A stretch of 7,532 nucleotides of DNA from the IMG/VR virus record IMGVR_UViG_2675903336_000001, one strand, 5' to 3'. Position numbers and translations under genes: made by a program. The stretch comes from a virus (taxonomy: Duplodnaviria; Heunggongvirae; Uroviricota; Caudoviricetes). The notes under the pieces were generated by a model that had not been told where the DNA came from, did not search any database, and saw nothing but the letters and a program-made list of their open reading frames with translations. Position 1 is the first letter of the stretch. Every line of letters starts with the position of its first letter. Of this stretch, positions 1 to 7,532 are shown one piece after another.

Positions 1-40
1 GCATTTGCTTTATCATGTAAAAGTCCTCTCTGCTCAGCAT
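1..40 (-). CDS. istA: IS21-family transposase IstA, N-terminal 13 codons (partial, continues past window edge)
   Basis: Reverse complement of 1..40 translates from ATG to MLSREDFYMIKQM, which matches the N-terminus of IS21-type IstA as I recall it. Too short for an independent statistical call. Confidence 0.65.
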   Translation of the reverse strand, partial: MLSREDFYMIKQM

Positions 41-141
41 GTTGATGTCCTTTCTGGTGTGAGAACCTTAAGGAAACAACATGTTGGGTGGAGCGGACAA
101 TCCAAATGGCGAATTACCGTCTTATATCACTGGCGCTGACA
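1..141 (-). mobile_element. IS21-family insertion sequence, left end only (rest lies beyond the window start)
   Basis: The minus strand carries a transposase start at 40..38 (see istA feature). A TGTCAG motif, which I recall as typical of IS21-family termini, sits at 141..136 on the minus strand, about 100 bp upstream of that start. Stf-like coding sequence ends abruptly at the same place. The exact boundary is an estimate. Confidence 0.6.
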
Positions 142-453
142 CTTCATCACCTCCGGACGTAAATCACCATCCTTTGGTGCATTCAGAAACGCGTTCAGTG
201 TCCCCGGTGCATCAGTCGGTGCCACATCAATATCCCCGACACGGGTTGGCTGCCAGCCGTTACAGTGAAGCGCAACCTCGTAATACCCCGGCTCAGCCTC
301 AATCACATAAGCACCGTTATTGTCCGTCACGCAAGTGGCAACAACGTGTGCCACAACGGTCGGACTGGTTCTTCTGGCCCGCAGTTCAATCGCACAATTT
401 ACGACAGGTTTACCCGCCCCATCTTTCAGTACACCTGAAATCTTTACTGCCAT
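127..453 (-). pseudogene. stf: Side tail fibre (Stf-like) N-terminal fragment, truncated by the IS21-family insertion
   Basis: ATG at 453..451 begins MAVKISGVLKDGAGKPV..., resembling the lambda Stf N-terminus (MAVKISGVLKDG...). The frame stays open only about 108 codons and reaches a stop at 129..127, inside the presumed IS end. Position after lom matches lambda order J-lom-stf. The ORF-track start at 495 is an upstream extension that overlaps the lom terminator. Confidence 0.6.
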
Positions 454-463
454 ATTCACCCCA

Positions 464-489
464 CAAAAAGCCCGCCTGAACCAGCGGGC
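464..489 (-). terminator. Putative rho-independent terminator downstream of lom
   Basis: Plus strand has gcccgc (470-475), an 8-nt loop, then gcgggc (484-489), preceded by aaaaa (465-469). On the minus strand this reads as a GC-rich 6-bp stem followed by TTTTT, 28 nt past the lom stop. Confidence 0.5.
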
Positions 490-516: not shown

Positions 517-1116
517 TCAGAACTTATAACCGACACCCACGATGAAACCGTCAGTGCGCCAGTCACCACTGCCGGAACCTTCATAAGCAAGGTCAATGGC
601 CACGGATTCGGTCGGGTTAAACTGCACGCCAGCCCCCCACGCCAGAGACGTGTTGCTGTGGCGACCGCCATCACTTCCGGTCAGCACATCGTGCGTTTTC
701 CCCTTGTTGTCAGTTACGCGGAGATAATCCCCGGAGAAGGTCGACACACGGCTGTAAGCCACGCCCGCCATCGCATACGCGCTGAACCATTCATTCACGC
801 GCACAGACGGCCCCGCCATCACGCTGAACCAGCGGTTACGCACGGAATCCTCATGCCAGCGGGTATCGCTGTAATGCGTTTTTTGCTCATCTTCAGCGTT
901 GGCATAACTGAATGACGTAATCAGCCCCAGCGTGTCCGTAAACTCATAACGGTATTTCACGTTAATGCCCTTCAGGTCATCGCTGCCTGGCATATCAGTA
1001 TGGGTCTGAAGATACCCGGCGCTCAGCGTGGACTGATGTTCAGACGCCCATGCAGGCGCACCGGATACGGCCAGACAGATGGCTGCGGACAAAATGGCTG
1101 CACAAACTTTACGCAT
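517..1116 (-). CDS. lom: Lom outer-membrane beta-barrel protein (Ail/Lom/OmpX/PagC family), prophage moron
   Basis: 199-aa ORF with a signal peptide (MRKVCAAILSAAICLAVSGAPAWA). C-terminus ...AYEGSGSGDWRTDGFIVGVGYKF matches the lambda Lom C-terminus, including the terminal aromatic residue typical of OMP barrels. SD-like GAGAGG lies 4-5 nt before the ATG at 1116. Confidence 0.9.
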   Translation of the reverse strand: MRKVCAAILSAAICLAVSGAPAWASEHQSTLSAGYLQTHTDMPGSDDLKGINVKYRYEFTDTLGLITSFSYANAEDEQKTHYSDTRWHEDSVRNRWFSVMAGPSVRVNEWFSAYAMAGVAYSRVSTFSGDYLRVTDNKGKTHDVLTGSDGGRHSNTSLAWGAGVQFNPTESVAIDLAYEGSGSGDWRTDGFIVGVGYKF

Positions 1117-1140: not shown

Positions 1141-1164
1141 AAAAAAGGCACCATTTCTGGTGCC
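1141..1164 (-). terminator. Putative rho-independent terminator between J and lom
   Basis: Plus strand has aaaaaa (1141-1146), ggcacc (1147-1152), a 6-nt loop, then ggtgcc (1159-1164). On the minus strand this is a 6-bp GC stem followed by TTTTTT, 20 nt past the stop of the J C-terminal ORF (1186..1184). Confidence 0.55.
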
Positions 1165-1183
1165 CGTATCTGGGTTATAAAAT

Positions 1184-4100
1184 TCAGCTAATCGTGATGC
1201 CTGCAGTGGCTTTCTTCATCACCACAACCAGCAAATCGCTGATACTTGCTGTGGGATACCAGCCATTTACCAGCCATGCCGATACAGAAAACTCCAGCGT
1301 CATGTGACCGTGACCGGCAGGCATATCAATAACACCCGTATATATCAGCGTATTATCCAGGGTCGTTCGGTTATAAATTTCAGCACCGTTTTTCTTCACT
1401 ATCAGGCGGCATGACGAATAAATATTGTTATTCTTCCGCTCATGTTTAGCACCGCGAAACGCCACCGCGGGAATAACAATTTGCCGATCAAACGGCTGAT
1501 CGTCATAAACCCTGACGGTAATGGTCCCTGATGGCCACCTCTCCGGTGCCCGGGAGTCCCGTGGGAAAGGTTTGCCCACTGTTTTAACGAGATCGCCTTC
1601 AATCTGGTTCGCGGACAATTTTCCCAGAACCCGACNNNNNNNNNNNNNNNNNNNNNNNNNNNNNNNNNNNNNNNNNNNNNNNNNNNNNNNNNNNNNNNNN
1701 NNNNNNNNNNNNNNNNNNNNNNNNNNNNNNNNNNNNNNNNNNNNNNNNNNNNNNNNNNNNNNNNNNNNNNNNNNNNNNNNNNNNNNNNNNNNNNNNNNNN
1801 NNNNNNNNNNNNNNNNNNNNNNNNNNNNNNNNNNNNNNNNNNNNNNNNNNNNNNNNNNNNNNNNNNNNNNNNNNNNNNNNNNNNNTCGCAGGATTAATCA
1901 TCGCAATCCTGTCTGCCGCCAGCAGCACCTGACTCTGCATTCCTGCTGGCGTATTCTCAATACCGGCACCGATACCCGCAATATAAAGGCGTCCGTCCTT
2001 CATCTGTTGCAGCTTCACAGCCCACATGCTGTTCAGGTTATTATTTGTATCAACCTGAACTTTCTGTATCTGCTGGATTGCAGCACTCTGATTTTCCAGT
2101 TTTTTATTGACGGTTTGCGTGATTTCATTGCTGACATTCGTAATGGACGTCCTGATTTCAGTCAGGTCCGGCGCAAGCTGACCGTTATCAATCTGCGTCC
2201 ACAACTCCTTGCCGAGATGCGTTTTATTGATCAACCCTTTATAAAAATTCAGATAACCTTCTGCATCATCGCTCGCCCGACCGATGGCCTCCACAAATGC
2301 CGATTTGCCAACGGTGTTCACACTGCGAACGTAAAAATAATAATCATGGCCCGGCCTGATATTGATACTGGCGGCTATCCAGTACAGCGCCGTGCCAAGA
2401 TAGCGGGCGCTGGTTTCAACCTGCCTGATATCCGCAATCCGCTTTTCCGAAAACCAGAACTCAAACTGCACCGTCGGGTCATATACAGCCAGTTTCGGGA
2501 CCGCCGTTATCTGAAAATACCCCGGTATCAGTTCAATAGTGACAGGCGCTGCCGGTGCCGCAATCCGGAACGATACCGACGCCGGATCGCCCTGCTGCCC
2601 CCGGGCATTTACCGCCCGGACTGTCAGACTGTAATTCCCCAGCGCCAGCTGCCTGAAGCGGTATGTGGTTTCCGTCGTCCTGGCTGTGCTGACCAGCCGC
2701 TCACTGCCGTCGTCCGCTGCCACGGTCAGGCGAAGCAGGAAGCTCACACCCTTCACCACCTTCGGCGTGTCCCATCGCGCCAGCACCTGATATTCCCCGC
2801 TGTCTGCGGTGACTTCGGCGGTCAGATGCTGCACCGCTGGCGGCGTGACACCATTCACCGTGCCGCGCCGGTCACCGTCAAAGTGTGCCCCGTTATCCAC
2901 GATGGCCTCTTTTTCCGGCACATGCTGCACGGCGGTGATGGCATACGTGCCGTCGTCGTTCTCACGGATACTCACGCAGCGGAACAGACGCTGGCGCAGC
3001 GTCGGCAGCTTCAGCCCCCACACGCTGTATTCTGCAACGCCGTCAGGAACCCGGCTCACTTTCACCTTCACGCCGTCGGTGACGGACTGGACCTCCACGC
3101 TGACCGGATTGCCACTTCCGTCAACCAGGCTTATCAGCGTGGTACCGGAGGACGGCAGCGTGATTTCACGGTCGAGCGTCAGCGTCCGGGTCTGGCTGTT
3201 CACCGCCAGTACGCGACCACCGGTGCTGATACCGGCATAATCATCATCGCAGATTTCAATGACATCACCCGGTACATGGCGAAGCCCTTCTGCGCCCACG
3301 CTGAAGTCCACGGTCTGCGTTTCCAGCAGTTCCGTTTTAATCAGCCACAGCCCGGCTCGGTGTGCCTGCCCCCGGCTGGTACAGCCAAAGGCATCCATCT
3401 TCGNNNNNNNNNNNNNNNNNNNNNNNNNNNNNNNNNNNNNNNNNNNNNNNNNNNNNNNNNNNNNNNNNNNNNNNNNNNNNNNNNNNNNNNNNNNNNNNNN
3501 NNNNNNNNNNNNNNNNNNNNNNNNNNNNNNNNNNNNNNNNNNNNNNNNNNNNNNNNNNNNNNNNNNNNNNNNNNNNNNNNNNNNNNNNNNNNNNNNNNNN
3601 NNNNNNNNNNNNNNNNNNNNNNNNNNNNNNNNNNNNNNNNNNNNNNNNNNNNNNNNCATACAGCGCATCGCCGAGCAGAAATCACTGAGAACATCCCACG
3701 CCTTACGCTGTGTGGTCAGGTAAGAGTTACAGGTGATGCGCGGCTCCGTGCCGCCAAATCCGTCCGTCACTGACTGGTCGCAGTACTGGCCGATGACATA
3801 CAGCGCCCATTTGTCCACATCTGCCGCACCAAGACGTTTCCCCATGCCGTAGCGCGGATGAGTGAGCATGTCCCACAGACACCAGGCCATGTTGTTGCTG
3901 TATGCTGGCTTAAGCGTTCCGTCCCAGATACCGCTGTATTGCCGCGTCTGCGGGTTATAGTTCGACGGCACCTGCAGAATGCGCCCGCGAAGATGATAAT
4001 TGCGACTCACCTGCTGGTTACCGAACTGCTCTGAATCCACCTGCACGCCGACCAGCGCCGTGTTCGGGTAGCACTGTTTCACATCGATGATTTCGGTGTA

Positions 4101-4703
4101 CGACGACCAGAGCGTTTTGTTCTGCAGCTGGTCTGTGGTGCTGTCCGGTGTCATCCTGCGCATCCGGATATTAAACGGGCGCGGCGGCAGGTTACCCACC
4201 ACCACCGAGGCCAGATACTGCGAAGTGGTTTTGCCCTTAATGGTGATGTCTTTTTCCGTCACCCAGCCACCGTTACGCTGTATCTGAACCAGCAGGCGGA
4301 CTTCCGACGGATTCCGGTCACCCTTTGAGGTGGTTTCCACCAGTGCCTGCACACCGAAGGTCAGGCGCAGACGGTCGATGTTTGCCGACGTGATGGTCCG
4401 GGTGATCGGCGTGTCATATTTCACTTCCGTACCCAGCACCGTCTCGGAGCCGGAGGATTCAAAACCCTCCGGCGGTGTCTGCTCCTGCTCACCTGCACGG
4501 AACACCACCGTAACACCGGAAAAGTTTGTCTTCCCCTCGCTGTCCAGGACCGGCGTACCGTTCAGCAGCACGCTTTTTAATCCATCCACCGGACCGTCAA
4601 CCGGCCCTTCGCTGATGGCATCAATCACACTCAGCAACTGCGTGGATTTCAGGTTGTCCTTCGCTTCGCGCGGGGTATGCCCCTTACTGCTGCCTTTACC
4701 CAT
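1184..4703 (-). CDS. J: Tail tip / host specificity protein J (central tail fibre); interrupted by two N-masked blocks, with a frame change across the first
   Basis: ATG at 4703..4701 begins [34 protein letters not shown]..., closely matching the lambda gpJ N-terminus. The frame is collinear through the 3404-3656 mask (...FCSAMRCM / [22 protein letters not shown]...). The body frame runs to ...[11 protein letters not shown] at 1887. The C-terminal domain (...[21 protein letters not shown]...[13 protein letters not shown]...[14 protein letters not shown], stop at 1184) matches the lambda gpJ receptor-binding C-terminus but lies in a different frame. The ORF-track stop at 1599 is a short read-on in the body frame after the mask. 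Confidence 0.85.
1636..1885. other. Masked or unsequenced block (250 N) inside J
   Basis: Run of n characters; no sequence information. Would correspond to the J region between the fibronectin-like body and the receptor-binding domain. Confidence 1.
3404..3656. other. Masked or unsequenced block (253 N) inside J
   Basis: Run of n characters. The J frame is preserved across it, so about 84 codons are hidden. Confidence 1.
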
Positions 4704-4763: not shown

Positions 4764-5405
4764 TCAGCGACCAATCACCACAACCTGACCACCATCCCCT
4801 TCGTCTGCCGTGCTGATCTCCTGAGAAACCACACGTGACCCCACGCGCATTTCACCGTACAGAACGGGCAGAACATTGCCCTGGGCAACCATGTTATCCA
4901 GTGACGAGAAATACGTGTTCTGCTTACCGTTATCCGTTGTCTGTGTACGGGGAGTTCTGGCTTTCGGTGCCAGCATCTGTGCAACACCGCCAAGCGTCAT
5001 ACTGGCACCGAGAGAAAACAGCAGATTACTCGCCATAATTCCTACCCCCGGCATCCATATAGCAACCGCCATAACAGCCGCCCCCAGCACCGCCTGAAAC
5101 ACACCGCCACTTTTAGCTCCCACCAGACGCGGTACTATGTGGATCACTGCACCATTTGCCAGCGGCTCATTAAGACGGGCAGACAATTCGGTTTCACCTG
5201 CATCACGCCCGGCAATGCGCACCTGATACCAGCCGTCACTCAGTTTCTGACGAAACGCCGGGAGCTGTGTGGCCAGTGCCCGGATGGCTTCAGCCCCCGT
5301 TTTCACACGAAGGTCGATGCGGCGACCAAATCGTTGTAAATCCCCGTAAAGGCAGATGCGCGCCATGCCCGGTGACGCCAGAGGGAGTGTGTGCGTCGCT
5401 GCCAT
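4764..5405 (-). CDS. I: Tail tip assembly protein I (ubiquitin-like N-terminal domain)
   Basis: 213-aa ORF beginning MAATHTLPLASPGMARICLYGDLQRFGRRIDLRVKTGAEAIRALATQLP... and ending ...VSQEISTADEGDGGQVVVIGR, matching lambda gpI as I recall it. The ATG at 5405 overlaps the 3' end of K by 103 nt in another frame. A GTG at 5306..5304 overlapping the K stop (GTGA) is an alternative start. Confidence 0.85.
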   Translation of the reverse strand: MAATHTLPLASPGMARICLYGDLQRFGRRIDLRVKTGAEAIRALATQLPAFRQKLSDGWYQVRIAGRDAGETELSARLNEPLANGAVIHIVPRLVGAKSGGVFQAVLGAAVMAVAIWMPGVGIMASNLLFSLGASMTLGGVAQMLAPKARTPRTQTTDNGKQNTYFSSLDNMVAQGNVLPVLYGEMRVGSRVVSQEISTADEGDGGQVVVIGR

Positions 5406-6046
5406 TTGTCGGTGTACCTCTCTCGTTTGCTCAGTTGTTCAGGAATATGGTGCAGCAGCCCGCCGTCACCGCAGTAAATGGCGGCATGATTCGGCACCGA
5501 TGAACCAAAACAGCACAGCAGCACATCGCCCGGCTGTGCCTCTGTCAGTGCGACACGGTAAAAACCCGTCACCTCCATATTGTCAAGATAGAGATTCTGA
5601 CCGTTACGCCACCAGTCATCCCCGCGATGAAAATCCGGCATCTCAATCCCTGCCAGATGATAAGCATCCCGGAACAGCGTGTAACAGTCCGTCACCCCGT
5701 GCTCAAAGCGCCGCCCGGTGAGATGCGGCACACAGCGGAACTTGTGAATCGCCCCCCGGCAGACCAGCCACCACGGCAAATCACTCTGCACCTGCAGCCG
5801 CCGGTCAGCCTCACTCAGCCAGGGCAGACCACCGGGATGACTGTGGACCAGCGCCACAATCTCACCCTGCATTTGTGCCCGCAGCCAGTCCTCCGGAGCC
5901 ATCCGGAACCGTTCCTCCGGCTCACCGGAGATATTCTCGCTGGGAAGATACCTGTCTCCCTCCGGCGTTCTTACCACGAAGCCACACGACTCCGCTGGCG
6001 CACATCGCCGGGCGTGCGCCAGAATCGCTGATTCTGTCTGTGTCAT
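5303..6046 (-). CDS. K: Tail tip assembly protein K (JAMM/MPN metallopeptidase plus NlpC/P60-like domain)
   Basis: ATG at 6046..6044 begins MTQTESAILAHARRCAPAESCGFVV..., 5 nt after the L stop. JAMM-type motif HSHPGGLPWLSEAD (HxH-x7-S-x2-D) is encoded at about 5845..5804. The C-terminal half has Cys and His residues (GVTDCYTLF ... NHAAIYCGDG) consistent with an NlpC/P60 fold. The ORF-track version (5303..6310) is an upstream extension into L. Confidence 0.85.
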   Translation of the reverse strand: MTQTESAILAHARRCAPAESCGFVVRTPEGDRYLPSENISGEPEERFRMAPEDWLRAQMQGEIVALVHSHPGGLPWLSEADRRLQVQSDLPWWLVCRGAIHKFRCVPHLTGRRFEHGVTDCYTLFRDAYHLAGIEMPDFHRGDDWWRNGQNLYLDNMEVTGFYRVALTEAQPGDVLLCCFGSSVPNHAAIYCGDGGLLHHIPEQLSKRERYTDKWQRRTHSLWRHRAWRASAFTGIYNDLVAASTFV

Positions 6047-6050
6047 GGAT

Positions 6051-6749
6051 TTACTGAGAAAGTTTATTGATGGAAAGGAAACCGCCGAAATTACCGGTAT
6101 TGTTGCGCAACTCACACCCGCGCATACACTTGCTGCATTTGTCCTTCCGGATATCCGTCGTTGGTTTGTCGAACTCGTCAGCCACTGCCCTGCCCGTGTA
6201 ACCACACTCATCAGAACGGTAAGTCCACATACAGGTATTCGCCAGCATGATACGCCCCGGGAAAACCGCGCCATCCGTCTCCGTTGGTGTGGCCAGCACA
6301 AAAGAGGCACTGACCGCGCTCAGTTCGCTGCACTGCTCGATGCGCCAGCGGCTGATCACCTCCTGTTCCGGATCGGCGTCGCTGTTTCCGTTGACGAAGT
6401 TCACCGCATCCAGAAAACGGGCGTAAACCTTACGCCTGACCACCGTTCCGCCGACCAGACTCTGCAGGTCTTCCGCCATCCCGGTGACCATTCCGTGCAG
6501 GTTAGAAACCGTCAGTGTCGGACGGGCAGCACTGCCCTTGCCGTTCAGTTCAAATCCCGTCCCCTGAATGGGGTATGCCTGATACTGCCGCCCCTGCCAG
6601 GTAACCGGCTCACCTTTTTCGTTCTGCTCATTACAGAAAAAATAACGTTCACCACCGACCTCTGTCAGATCGATTTCCCAGAGCACCACCTGGGCTGACT
6701 GAGTGAGGCGTGTCGTCTCATGATGTGTTTCCTGTGGAATATCCTGCAT
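6051..6749 (-). CDS. L: Minor tail protein L (tail tip complex; C-terminal cysteine cluster)
   Basis: 232-aa ORF, MQDIPQETHHETTRLTQSAQVVLWEIDLTEV..., same length as lambda gpL. Strong SD GGAGG lies 5 nt before the ATG at 6749. C-terminal Cys-rich segment (CMWTYRSDECGY...DKCSKCMRGC). Confidence 0.9.
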   Translation of the reverse strand: MQDIPQETHHETTRLTQSAQVVLWEIDLTEVGGERYFFCNEQNEKGEPVTWQGRQYQAYPIQGTGFELNGKGSAARPTLTVSNLHGMVTGMAEDLQSLVGGTVVRRKVYARFLDAVNFVNGNSDADPEQEVISRWRIEQCSELSAVSASFVLATPTETDGAVFPGRIMLANTCMWTYRSDECGYTGRAVADEFDKPTTDIRKDKCSKCMRGCELRNNTGNFGGFLSINKLSQ

Positions 6750-6758
6750 CAGAGCCTC

Positions 6759-7088
6759 CTATGCCACGACCTGTTCAAAATCTGCCGTTATGGTTACCCA
6801 CAACGCCCCCACGCTTGCCGACCATTTACGACAAACCACCCTGATCGGCTTCCAGTCATAAGGTGGCGTCCACTGAAATGCGCGGACGCCACCGTGCCGT
6901 TCCAGAAAGGCTTTTAAAAATGGGTGTTCACCTTTACGAACACGTATCTTCACGCTGTAAGTCGACAACTGGTTATTCAGTCCCGCCGCACGACGCTGTT
7001 CATAACCATCGCCCAGCTTCACTGTCACCACTTTCGGCTCTGATACCACATTCATATCCGGGCGCACTTTCCAGTGAAACGTCTCCAT
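6759..7088 (-). CDS. M: Minor tail protein M
   Basis: 109-aa ORF, METFHWKVRPDMNVVSEPKVVTVKLGDGYEQRRAAGLN..., same length and start as lambda gpM. Its ATG (7088..7086) overlaps the H stop TAA (7090..7088) as TAATG, implying translational coupling. Confidence 0.9.
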   Translation of the reverse strand: METFHWKVRPDMNVVSEPKVVTVKLGDGYEQRRAAGLNNQLSTYSVKIRVRKGEHPFLKAFLERHGGVRAFQWTPPYDWKPIRVVCRKWSASVGALWVTITADFEQVVA

Positions 7089-7427: not shown

Positions 7428-7532
7428 TGAGGTAGCCTGAGTTTAACGGACACTCCTTCCTGAAATAGAATGGCATCAGAAGGAGCTAATAATGAGCAGA
7501 AAAACCCAACGTTACTCTAAAGAGTTCAAAGC
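7428..7532 (+). mobile_element. IS3-family insertion sequence (IS600-like), left end, continues past the window
   Basis: Begins TGAGGTAGCCTGAGTTTAACGG... at 7428 (IS3-family ends typically start with TG). It contains an SD AGGAG and the orfA start at 7492. The end position is an estimate. Confidence 0.65.
7492..7532 (+). CDS. IS3-family transposase OrfA, N-terminal 13 codons (partial)
   Basis: ATG at 7492 is preceded by AGGAGctaata and translates to MSRKTQRYSKEFK, which matches the start of IS600-type OrfA as I recall it. Confidence 0.65.
   Translation, partial: MSRKTQRYSKEFK

Follow-up and report, generated by a model that had tools for sequence, protein, structure and literature searches.

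Tail-tip module and the C-terminal domain of J

We analyzed a 7,532-nt stretch of prophage DNA from IMG/VR (record IMGVR_UViG_2675903336_000001; hereafter the window, with coordinates counted from its first letter), and in particular the receptor-binding domain (RBD) at the C terminus of J, the tail tip attachment or host specificity protein (gpJ). According to its open reading frames (ORFs) and their Pfam matches, the window contains a lambda-type tail-tip module on the minus strand, in the order H'-M-L-K-I-J-terminator-lom-stf' (Table 1). The RBD lies at the C terminus of J within the M-L-K-I-J module, with lom and the N-terminal part of stf downstream of it. Upstream and on the same strand, the body of J matches the Pfam families FNIII-A_GpJ, Phage-tail_3, Ig_J, Ig_J_second, and Phage_Tail_Tip.

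The minus-strand frame at 1187-1633 encodes 149 readable amino acids and ends at a stop codon (1184-1186). The upper boundary of this region, at 1633, is imposed by a run of 250 Ns and not by biology. A sequence-only reading of this DNA had placed the last 140 or so residues in the family of gpJ C-terminal domains, and this is borne out by Pfam, by phmmer, and by the fold of a structural model. First, residues 20-149 (window positions 1187-1576) match PF12421 (Ig_GpJ_C), which Pfam describes as [quoted passage not shown]: the score is 130.1 bits (the cutoff is 26.2; E = 7e-38), and the match covers positions 2-135 of the 135 in the profile. Second, when compared to PDB sequences with phmmer, the domain matches the gpJ variant A8 (E = 7e-50) and residues 985-1131 of lambda gpJ (E = 7e-28). 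The blocks WPSG, DDxPFDRQIV, and DMPAG are kept as in lambda. These matches are far beyond chance: the region is a C-terminal RBD of the gpJ family.

The same reading had contrasted a stretch of this domain with a lambda sequence (TFRGSKRTVSGRTTYSMCYLKVLMNGAVIYDGAANEAVQVFSR), and both appear exactly in the phmmer alignment. Near-identity to lambda residues 990-1132 would have refuted that reading; instead, the domain is 39.6% identical to lambda's.

Third, we modeled the RBD as a monomer with AlphaFold2. A search for homologous proteins returned mostly partial fragments of J (52-99% identity), with no lambda-type sequences among the returned proteins, so the alignment behind the model was shallow (30 rows, from 30 homologues). 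The model is a beta-sandwich with nine strand segments (as assigned by DSSP), with a predicted local distance difference test score (pLDDT) of 82.9 and a predicted template modeling score (pTM) of 0.77. As the sequence-only reading had proposed, we compared the model to the complex of lambda gpJ with LamB (8xcj), and also to the other solved gpJ RBDs (9wca, 9wcb, and 8xck). Foldseek gave TMq values of 0.81-0.84 across these structures (E of about 1e-14 to 1e-16), with 0.81-0.82 for the structures of A8 and 0.82-0.84 for those of lambda.

Table 1. Features of the window. Strands are relative to the sequence as given in IMG/VR; amino acid (aa) positions count along the 149 readable residues of the RBD.
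Feature	Position	Strand	Remarks
IS21-family element, terminal 141 bp	1..141	-	End TGTCAGCGCC; start of istA (MLSREDFYMIKQM)
stf (side tail fibre), 5' part: first 104 codons from the probable MAVKISG start at 453	142..453	-	Pfam phage_tail_N, positions 1-104 of 134
Second terminator-like hairpin with T run, between lom and stf	470..489	-	
lom, Ail/Lom outer-membrane beta-barrel protein, full length	517..1116	-	Pfam Ail_Lom, 1-199 of 199, E = 4e-129
Terminator-like hairpin with T run, between J and lom	1146..1165	-	A terminator is annotated at this position in phage 21
J, tail tip attachment / host specificity protein	1184..4703	-	ORFs 1599-4703 and 1184-1618; two N masks inside
Loop G of the RBD, aa 121-133	1235..1273	-	Second predicted receptor-contact loop; G, N, or D occurs at position 124
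Hairpin tip ERKNNN, aa 65-70	1424..1441	-	Aligns with phi330 E953-S962 (ENFNSNNQQS)
Beta-hairpin of the RBD, aa 60-70	1424..1456	-	Predicted main receptor-inserting loop; most variable patch within the RBD type
Loop A of the RBD, aa 22-35	1529..1570	-	Non-strand in the model; indel site; 4 residues longer than in A8/phi330; matches phi330 T918-Y921
N mask, 250 N, within J	1636..1885	.	Read directly in the window sequence
N mask, 253 N, within J	3404..3656	.	Read directly in the window sequence
I, tail assembly protein	4764..5405	-	Pfam Lambda_tail_I
K, tail protein (JAB + NlpC/P60)	5303..6046	-	Pfam Prok-JAB, NLPC_P60; annotated in CFSAN029787 as C40 peptidase, 744 nt
L, minor tail protein	6051..6749	-	Pfam Phage_tail_L, E = 8e-97
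M, minor tail protein	6759..7088	-	Pfam Phage_min_tail
H (tape measure), last ~114 codons	7088..7427	-	Similarity to relatives ends at 7429; the gene continues in E. coli CFSAN029787
IS600 (IS3 family), left end	7428..7532	+	Begins TGAGGTAGCCTGAG; start of orfA (MSRKTQRYSKEFK)

The most common type of RBD in E. coli prophages

Among phages and prophages with J sequences that we compared, vB_EcoS-640R1 has an RBD with 94.6% identity to the window's and VT1-Sakai one with 92.6%. It is 67% identical to the RBD of phage 21 and 64% identical to the type shared by A8, phi330, and YYZ-2008. The experimental comparison comes from a study in which lambda gpJ was joined, at its residue 964, to the gpJ C termini of natural prophage variants (Brödel et al., Nature 2024, PMC11338833); two of those variants, 1A2 and A8, no longer require LamB. 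The 1A2 and A8 genes are printed in the supplement of that study. For 1A2, the DNA is recoded, and the machine-read text contains base errors, so that plain tblastn split it into frames. We therefore aligned it with a purpose-written method that tolerates frameshifts. Of the 141 readable residues in the RBD of 1A2, 136 are those of the VT1-Sakai type, and the five mismatches coincide with evident reading errors (an internal stop among them).

We placed an RBD in the VT1-Sakai/1A2 type if it had at least 90% identity along its full length and identical loop lengths. The window's RBD belongs there: its 92.6% identity to VT1-Sakai extends over 149 amino acids, with no indels and with loops of equal length. 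It is not of the LamB-binding lambda type, as all four of the loops L1-L4 differ from lambda's and the overall identity is so low.

This type is abundant. Of the 5,426 complete E. coli genomes, 3,378 carry DNA akin to 1184-1635. There are usually two copies per genome, most of them at 90-95% identity, and eight of the complete genomes match at 99.8%. RBDs that are about 90% identical or more are found in VT1-Sakai, the PPompW prophages, many long-tailed Stx1a/Stx2a phages, vB_EcoS-640R1, and the ECOR-derived PhiR phages. The identical 149 residues are encoded in 12 of the 80 best IMG/VR loci and in a RefSeq gpJ (WP_046880234.1, from strain CFSAN029787). The window as a whole has a best match of 97.8% among complete E. 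coli genomes, and a scan for exact 50-mers in one genome per species matched Shigella flexneri SFBU1023 and E. coli ECMA0423, which are 97-99% identical.

Thus, this is the most common type of RBD in the lambdoid prophages of E. coli and Shigella (the VT1-Sakai or gpJ 1A2 type), and the lambda RBD is a minority form among E. coli prophages. The sequence-only reading was right to call the domain divergent if lambda is the reference; as the most common type, it is not unusual.

Receptor-facing loops and the hairpin allele

In lambda, the four bottom loops of the immunoglobulin-like (Ig-like) RBD enter the lumen of LamB, and their spreading is relayed up the fibre and opens the tail. For phi330, a Stx2a siphophage, an AlphaFold3 model of the RBD has the hairpin E953-S962 pointing into the OmpC barrel and a second hairpin, A1015-P1020, on its rim (PMC12502783). 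In our alignment, the first of these (ENFNSNNQQS) corresponds to E65-N70 of the window's RBD and the second (ANNWTP) corresponds to V122-P127.

By analogy, the RBD in the window would be a trimeric Ig-like beta-sandwich at the extreme end of the central tail fibre. Judging from the order of strands in our model, the conserved blocks around DDxPFDRQIV and DMPAG would lie at the fibre-proximal end. At the opposite end, facing the host's receptor, would be the variable loops (aa 22-35, 60-70, 91-95, and 121-133); by strand order alone, the loop segments assigned to this end are aa 22-35, 66-69, 92-94, and 122-133. The hairpin is predicted to insert into the OmpC barrel, with loop G on the rim, and contact between the RBD and the porin might trigger the opening of the tail, as described for lambda with LamB.

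The RBD differs from the 1A2/VT1-Sakai type by 11 substitutions (given as window to 1A2/VT1-Sakai): P22A, R60S, R66K, K67E, N68H, N69T, N70D, K80R, T91A, T99S, and G124N. The printed 1A2 sequence agrees with VT1-Sakai at 10 of these 11 positions and is unreadable at the other. Six of the differences fall within the hairpin (aa 60-70), and eight are within one residue of the four receptor-end loops (hypergeometric P = 0.0016, in a post hoc test). At the tip of the hairpin, ERKNNN replaces EKEHTD of 1A2, so that five of six residues differ. Because the residues of the contact loops are not those of 1A2, the window carries a distinct allele of the VT1-Sakai/1A2 type. Natural alleles of the tip within this type, as seen in IMG/VR loci, include EKEHTD, EREHTD, and ERENND, of which the last two are intermediate between ERKNNN and EKEHTD. 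By these comparisons, the window's RBD is one allele of a natural series that varies in its loops.

The ERKNNN allele was seen mainly in Shigella and in strains of E. coli with ipaH at the flank of the prophage, which suggests that it circulates in lineages of Shigella and enteroinvasive E. coli (EIEC). Records from Shigella with the same RBD allele include a locus of S. flexneri SFBU1023 (L009) and a partial protein from S. dysenteriae (P0052).

A broader pattern was visible in the alignment of J fragments from prophages. At columns ~195-270, the hairpin and the rim loops form a patchwork, with unrelated sequences and differing lengths on a scaffold that is otherwise conserved (for example, the hairpin VVIGGNGANGSESYL and the rim loop SGANNWTP). 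This patchwork looks like diversification by the swapping of loops.

OmpC as the probable receptor

Two lines of published evidence favor OmpC. First, when 1A2 or A8 was used for delivery into MG1655 without lamB and ompC, delivery depended on which OmpC variant was supplied on a plasmid (PMC11338833). 1A2 works with OmpC from EDL933 and with most of 23 variants, and it fails with OmpC from K-12; in the source data, delivery by 1A2 was at most 2% for the first two OmpC variants and about 98% for the next two. A8 works with OmpC from either K-12 or EDL933. (In supplementary file 10 of that study, for Extended Data Fig. 2, the numbers for 1A2 and A8 in panel C, OmpC-EDL933, are the same as those in panel B, OmpC-MG1655. 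These identical numbers contradict the text and Fig. 1b of the study and may be a copying error in the source data.)

Second, phi330 cannot plate on the Keio ompC mutant, and complementation restores plating (PMC12502783). Phages phi330 and YYZ-2008 have the A8 type of RBD. The A8 fibre has also been solved, both closed (9wca) and in an open form that is bound to EDL933 OmpC (9wcb).

Since the window's RBD is 92.6% identical to that of the OmpC-using 1A2, and since the 64%-identical A8 type uses OmpC as well, its receptor is probably the trimeric porin OmpC and not LamB. The sequence-only reading had suggested that the divergent domain may target an outer-membrane protein other than lambda's, and 1A2 and A8 lend support to this.

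We also considered what is known of the closest relatives. For the phages with the most similar RBDs (vB_EcoS-640R1, PhiR46/47/49, and 2G7b), a literature search for receptor assignments gave mentions only. A 2026 preprint on the prediction of receptors from 255 coliphages deals with GpJ of the Drexlerviridae type and calls the C terminus of lambda's protein not comparable; it had no usable data for this question.

Several observations weigh against OmpC. The differences from 1A2 include five of the six residues at the hairpin's tip, R60S, and G124N, and receptor contact is predicted for these positions. Not every OmpC serves 1A2, which fails on that of K-12. For the exact ERKNNN allele, the assignment is carried over from relatives, and the roles of the loops come from an AlphaFold3 model of a 64%-identical RBD together with our own monomer model. 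The 1A2 sequence that we compared to is from a machine-read PDF with base errors. Finally, the choice of receptor is labile in the gpJ family. Phage 21 (OL657228) is 81% identical to A8, yet it natively uses LamB on K-12; a single mutation in J gives it use of OmpC, and OmpF follows, with a few mutations in J overall. Because phage 21 uses LamB despite this similarity, the receptor cannot be read from the type of RBD at 60-80% identity, and the assignment for the window depends on the 92.6% match to 1A2. Phage 21, whose native receptor is LamB, is thus a caveat here and not support for the use of OmpC.

These observations raise the possibility that the RBD is functional and binds LamB, OmpF, or a narrow set of OmpC variants that 1A2 does not share. 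The lability of phage 21, the concentration of the differences from 1A2 in the predicted contact loops, and the discrimination by 1A2 among OmpC variants all fit this alternative. However, the RBD is far closer to the OmpC-using 1A2, with no indels, than to any user of LamB: lambda is the more distant of these, and phage 21, at 67% identity, differs in the lengths of its loops. Also, both of the nearest natural types that have been tested use OmpC. We consider this alternative to be unlikely.

If OmpC is the receptor, then the ERKNNN allele may differ somewhat from 1A2 in the OmpC variants that it recognizes. More specifically, ERKNNN with R60 and G124 might be one of a natural series of alleles that tracks the variation in the loops of OmpC, with a range of OmpC variants that differs from 1A2's and that possibly includes OmpC from Shigella or EIEC, or another porin. 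This more specific proposal is tentative, and we would sooner bet against it than for it.

A probably intact J in a defective prophage

The sequence-only reading had added the proviso that the gene for J be intact. For J itself, the proviso probably holds; the prophage around it is a remnant. As the sequence is written, the RBD (ORF 1184-1618) and the body of J (ORF 1599-4703) do not share a reading frame. The change of frame falls across the 250-N mask, whose bases cannot be read, and this counts against a functional RBD. The expected product has about 1159 amino acids, as in relatives, and WP_046880234.1 is annotated as an intact gpJ (3480 nt).

We compared the masks to the corresponding sequences in relatives. 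The stretch that matches 1636-1885 has 219 nt in E. coli CFSAN029787, in S. flexneri SFBU1023, and in 52 of 54 relatives from IMG/VR, so the mask is 31 nt longer than expected. One of the IMG/VR relatives (L021) has the same IS21 junction and matches the window at 100% and 99.9% on the two flanks; its stretch is 219 nt long, with a frame that is open throughout. The other mask also departs from its relatives: the stretch that matches 3404-3656 has 244 nt in CFSAN029787 and SFBU1023, as compared to 253 Ns (the same length modulo 3). That the second mask is off as well suggests that the lengths of the masks most likely do not reflect those of the hidden sequence. The visible parts of J contain neither a stop nor a frameshift. 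Most likely, then, the apparent change of frame within J is an artifact of masking, and J is intact beneath the mask.

The other explanation is that J is a pseudogene, with a 250-N mask of true length and an RBD that is never made; although the frames do differ as given and a prophage with two insertions could plausibly have decayed further, the lengths of the stretch in relatives make this very unlikely.

The rest of the tail module is a prophage remnant that has been cut by two insertion sequence (IS) elements. An IS21-family element interrupts stf just after its N-terminal domain, with the junction at 141/142 (this is the junction that L021 shares), and IS600 cuts the tape measure gene H from 7428 onward. 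Relatives have full-length genes at both sites; for instance, the position of stf in CFSAN029787 is occupied by a gene of 1413 nt. With both H and stf cut, this copy of J could not by itself build an infectious tail.

The closest relatives that we found are one genome of S. flexneri and genomes of E. coli, including CFSAN029787, which has an ipaH gene beside the prophage. A heavy load of IS elements is typical of the genomes of Shigella and of ipaH-carrying E. coli. In CFSAN029787, the nearest relative among complete genomes, just past the tail fibre genes of the prophage, is a frameshifted gene for the type III secretion system effector ipaHe (L001, 3462-5104).

Another feature of this region is that lom is bracketed by two terminator-like hairpins. 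This arrangement fits with lom being a separately regulated "moron."

Implications

As a discovery, this RBD matters little. The domain belongs to a family curated by Pfam, the gene is annotated in RefSeq as gpJ, this type of RBD is found in most E. coli genomes, and a close relative has been characterized functionally. That relative, 1A2, already serves as a module that directs engineered lambda particles to OmpC.

The practical value is modest as well, since the window provides one more natural allele of the hairpin for a type of RBD that is already being used. Such alleles could broaden or shift the variants of OmpC, and hence the strains, that engineered lambda particles reach. If the proposed series of alleles is real, then the sequence of the hairpin would be a readable code for which hosts are open to a lambdoid phage or to an engineered lambda particle. 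More generally, calling a receptor from the sequence of J requires an identity of about 90% or more to an RBD that has been tested, and such calls are provisional even then.

Comparison with known systems

The closest characterized system is gpJ 1A2, whose type of RBD is that of VT1-Sakai (Sp15) and of many long-tailed Stx1a/Stx2a phages. As in the window, the RBD is at the end of J and lom follows. The two differ by the 11 substitutions, which are concentrated in the hairpin and the other loops of the receptor end.

gpJ A8, with phi330 and YYZ-2008, is like the window in family and in fold, and its receptor is OmpC by genetics. Its hairpin has 5 additional residues (ENFNSNNQQSYW, as compared to ERKNNNI in the window), and loop A has 4 fewer. 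Also, A8 accepts OmpC from K-12, but 1A2 does not.

The central tail fibre of phage 21 (CPT_21_21 in OL657228) is from the same family, and a terminator follows J in that phage as well. Unlike the OmpC that we expect for the window's RBD, its native receptor is LamB, with OmpC and OmpF available only after mutations in J.

Lambda gpJ (RBD at about residues 985-1132; 8xck, and 8xcj when bound to LamB) has the same Ig-like RBD, and the gene order M-L-K-I-J-lom-stf is common to lambda and the window. However, all four of its receptor loops are unlike those in the window, and it uses LamB, or OmpF after mutation.

Lastly, the central tail fibre of phage 434 is another lambdoid J whose RBD uses OmpC (PMC12502783). 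The RBDs of lambda, 434, and phi330 are 35-40% identical to each other, with unrelated loop sequences, as reported in that paper.

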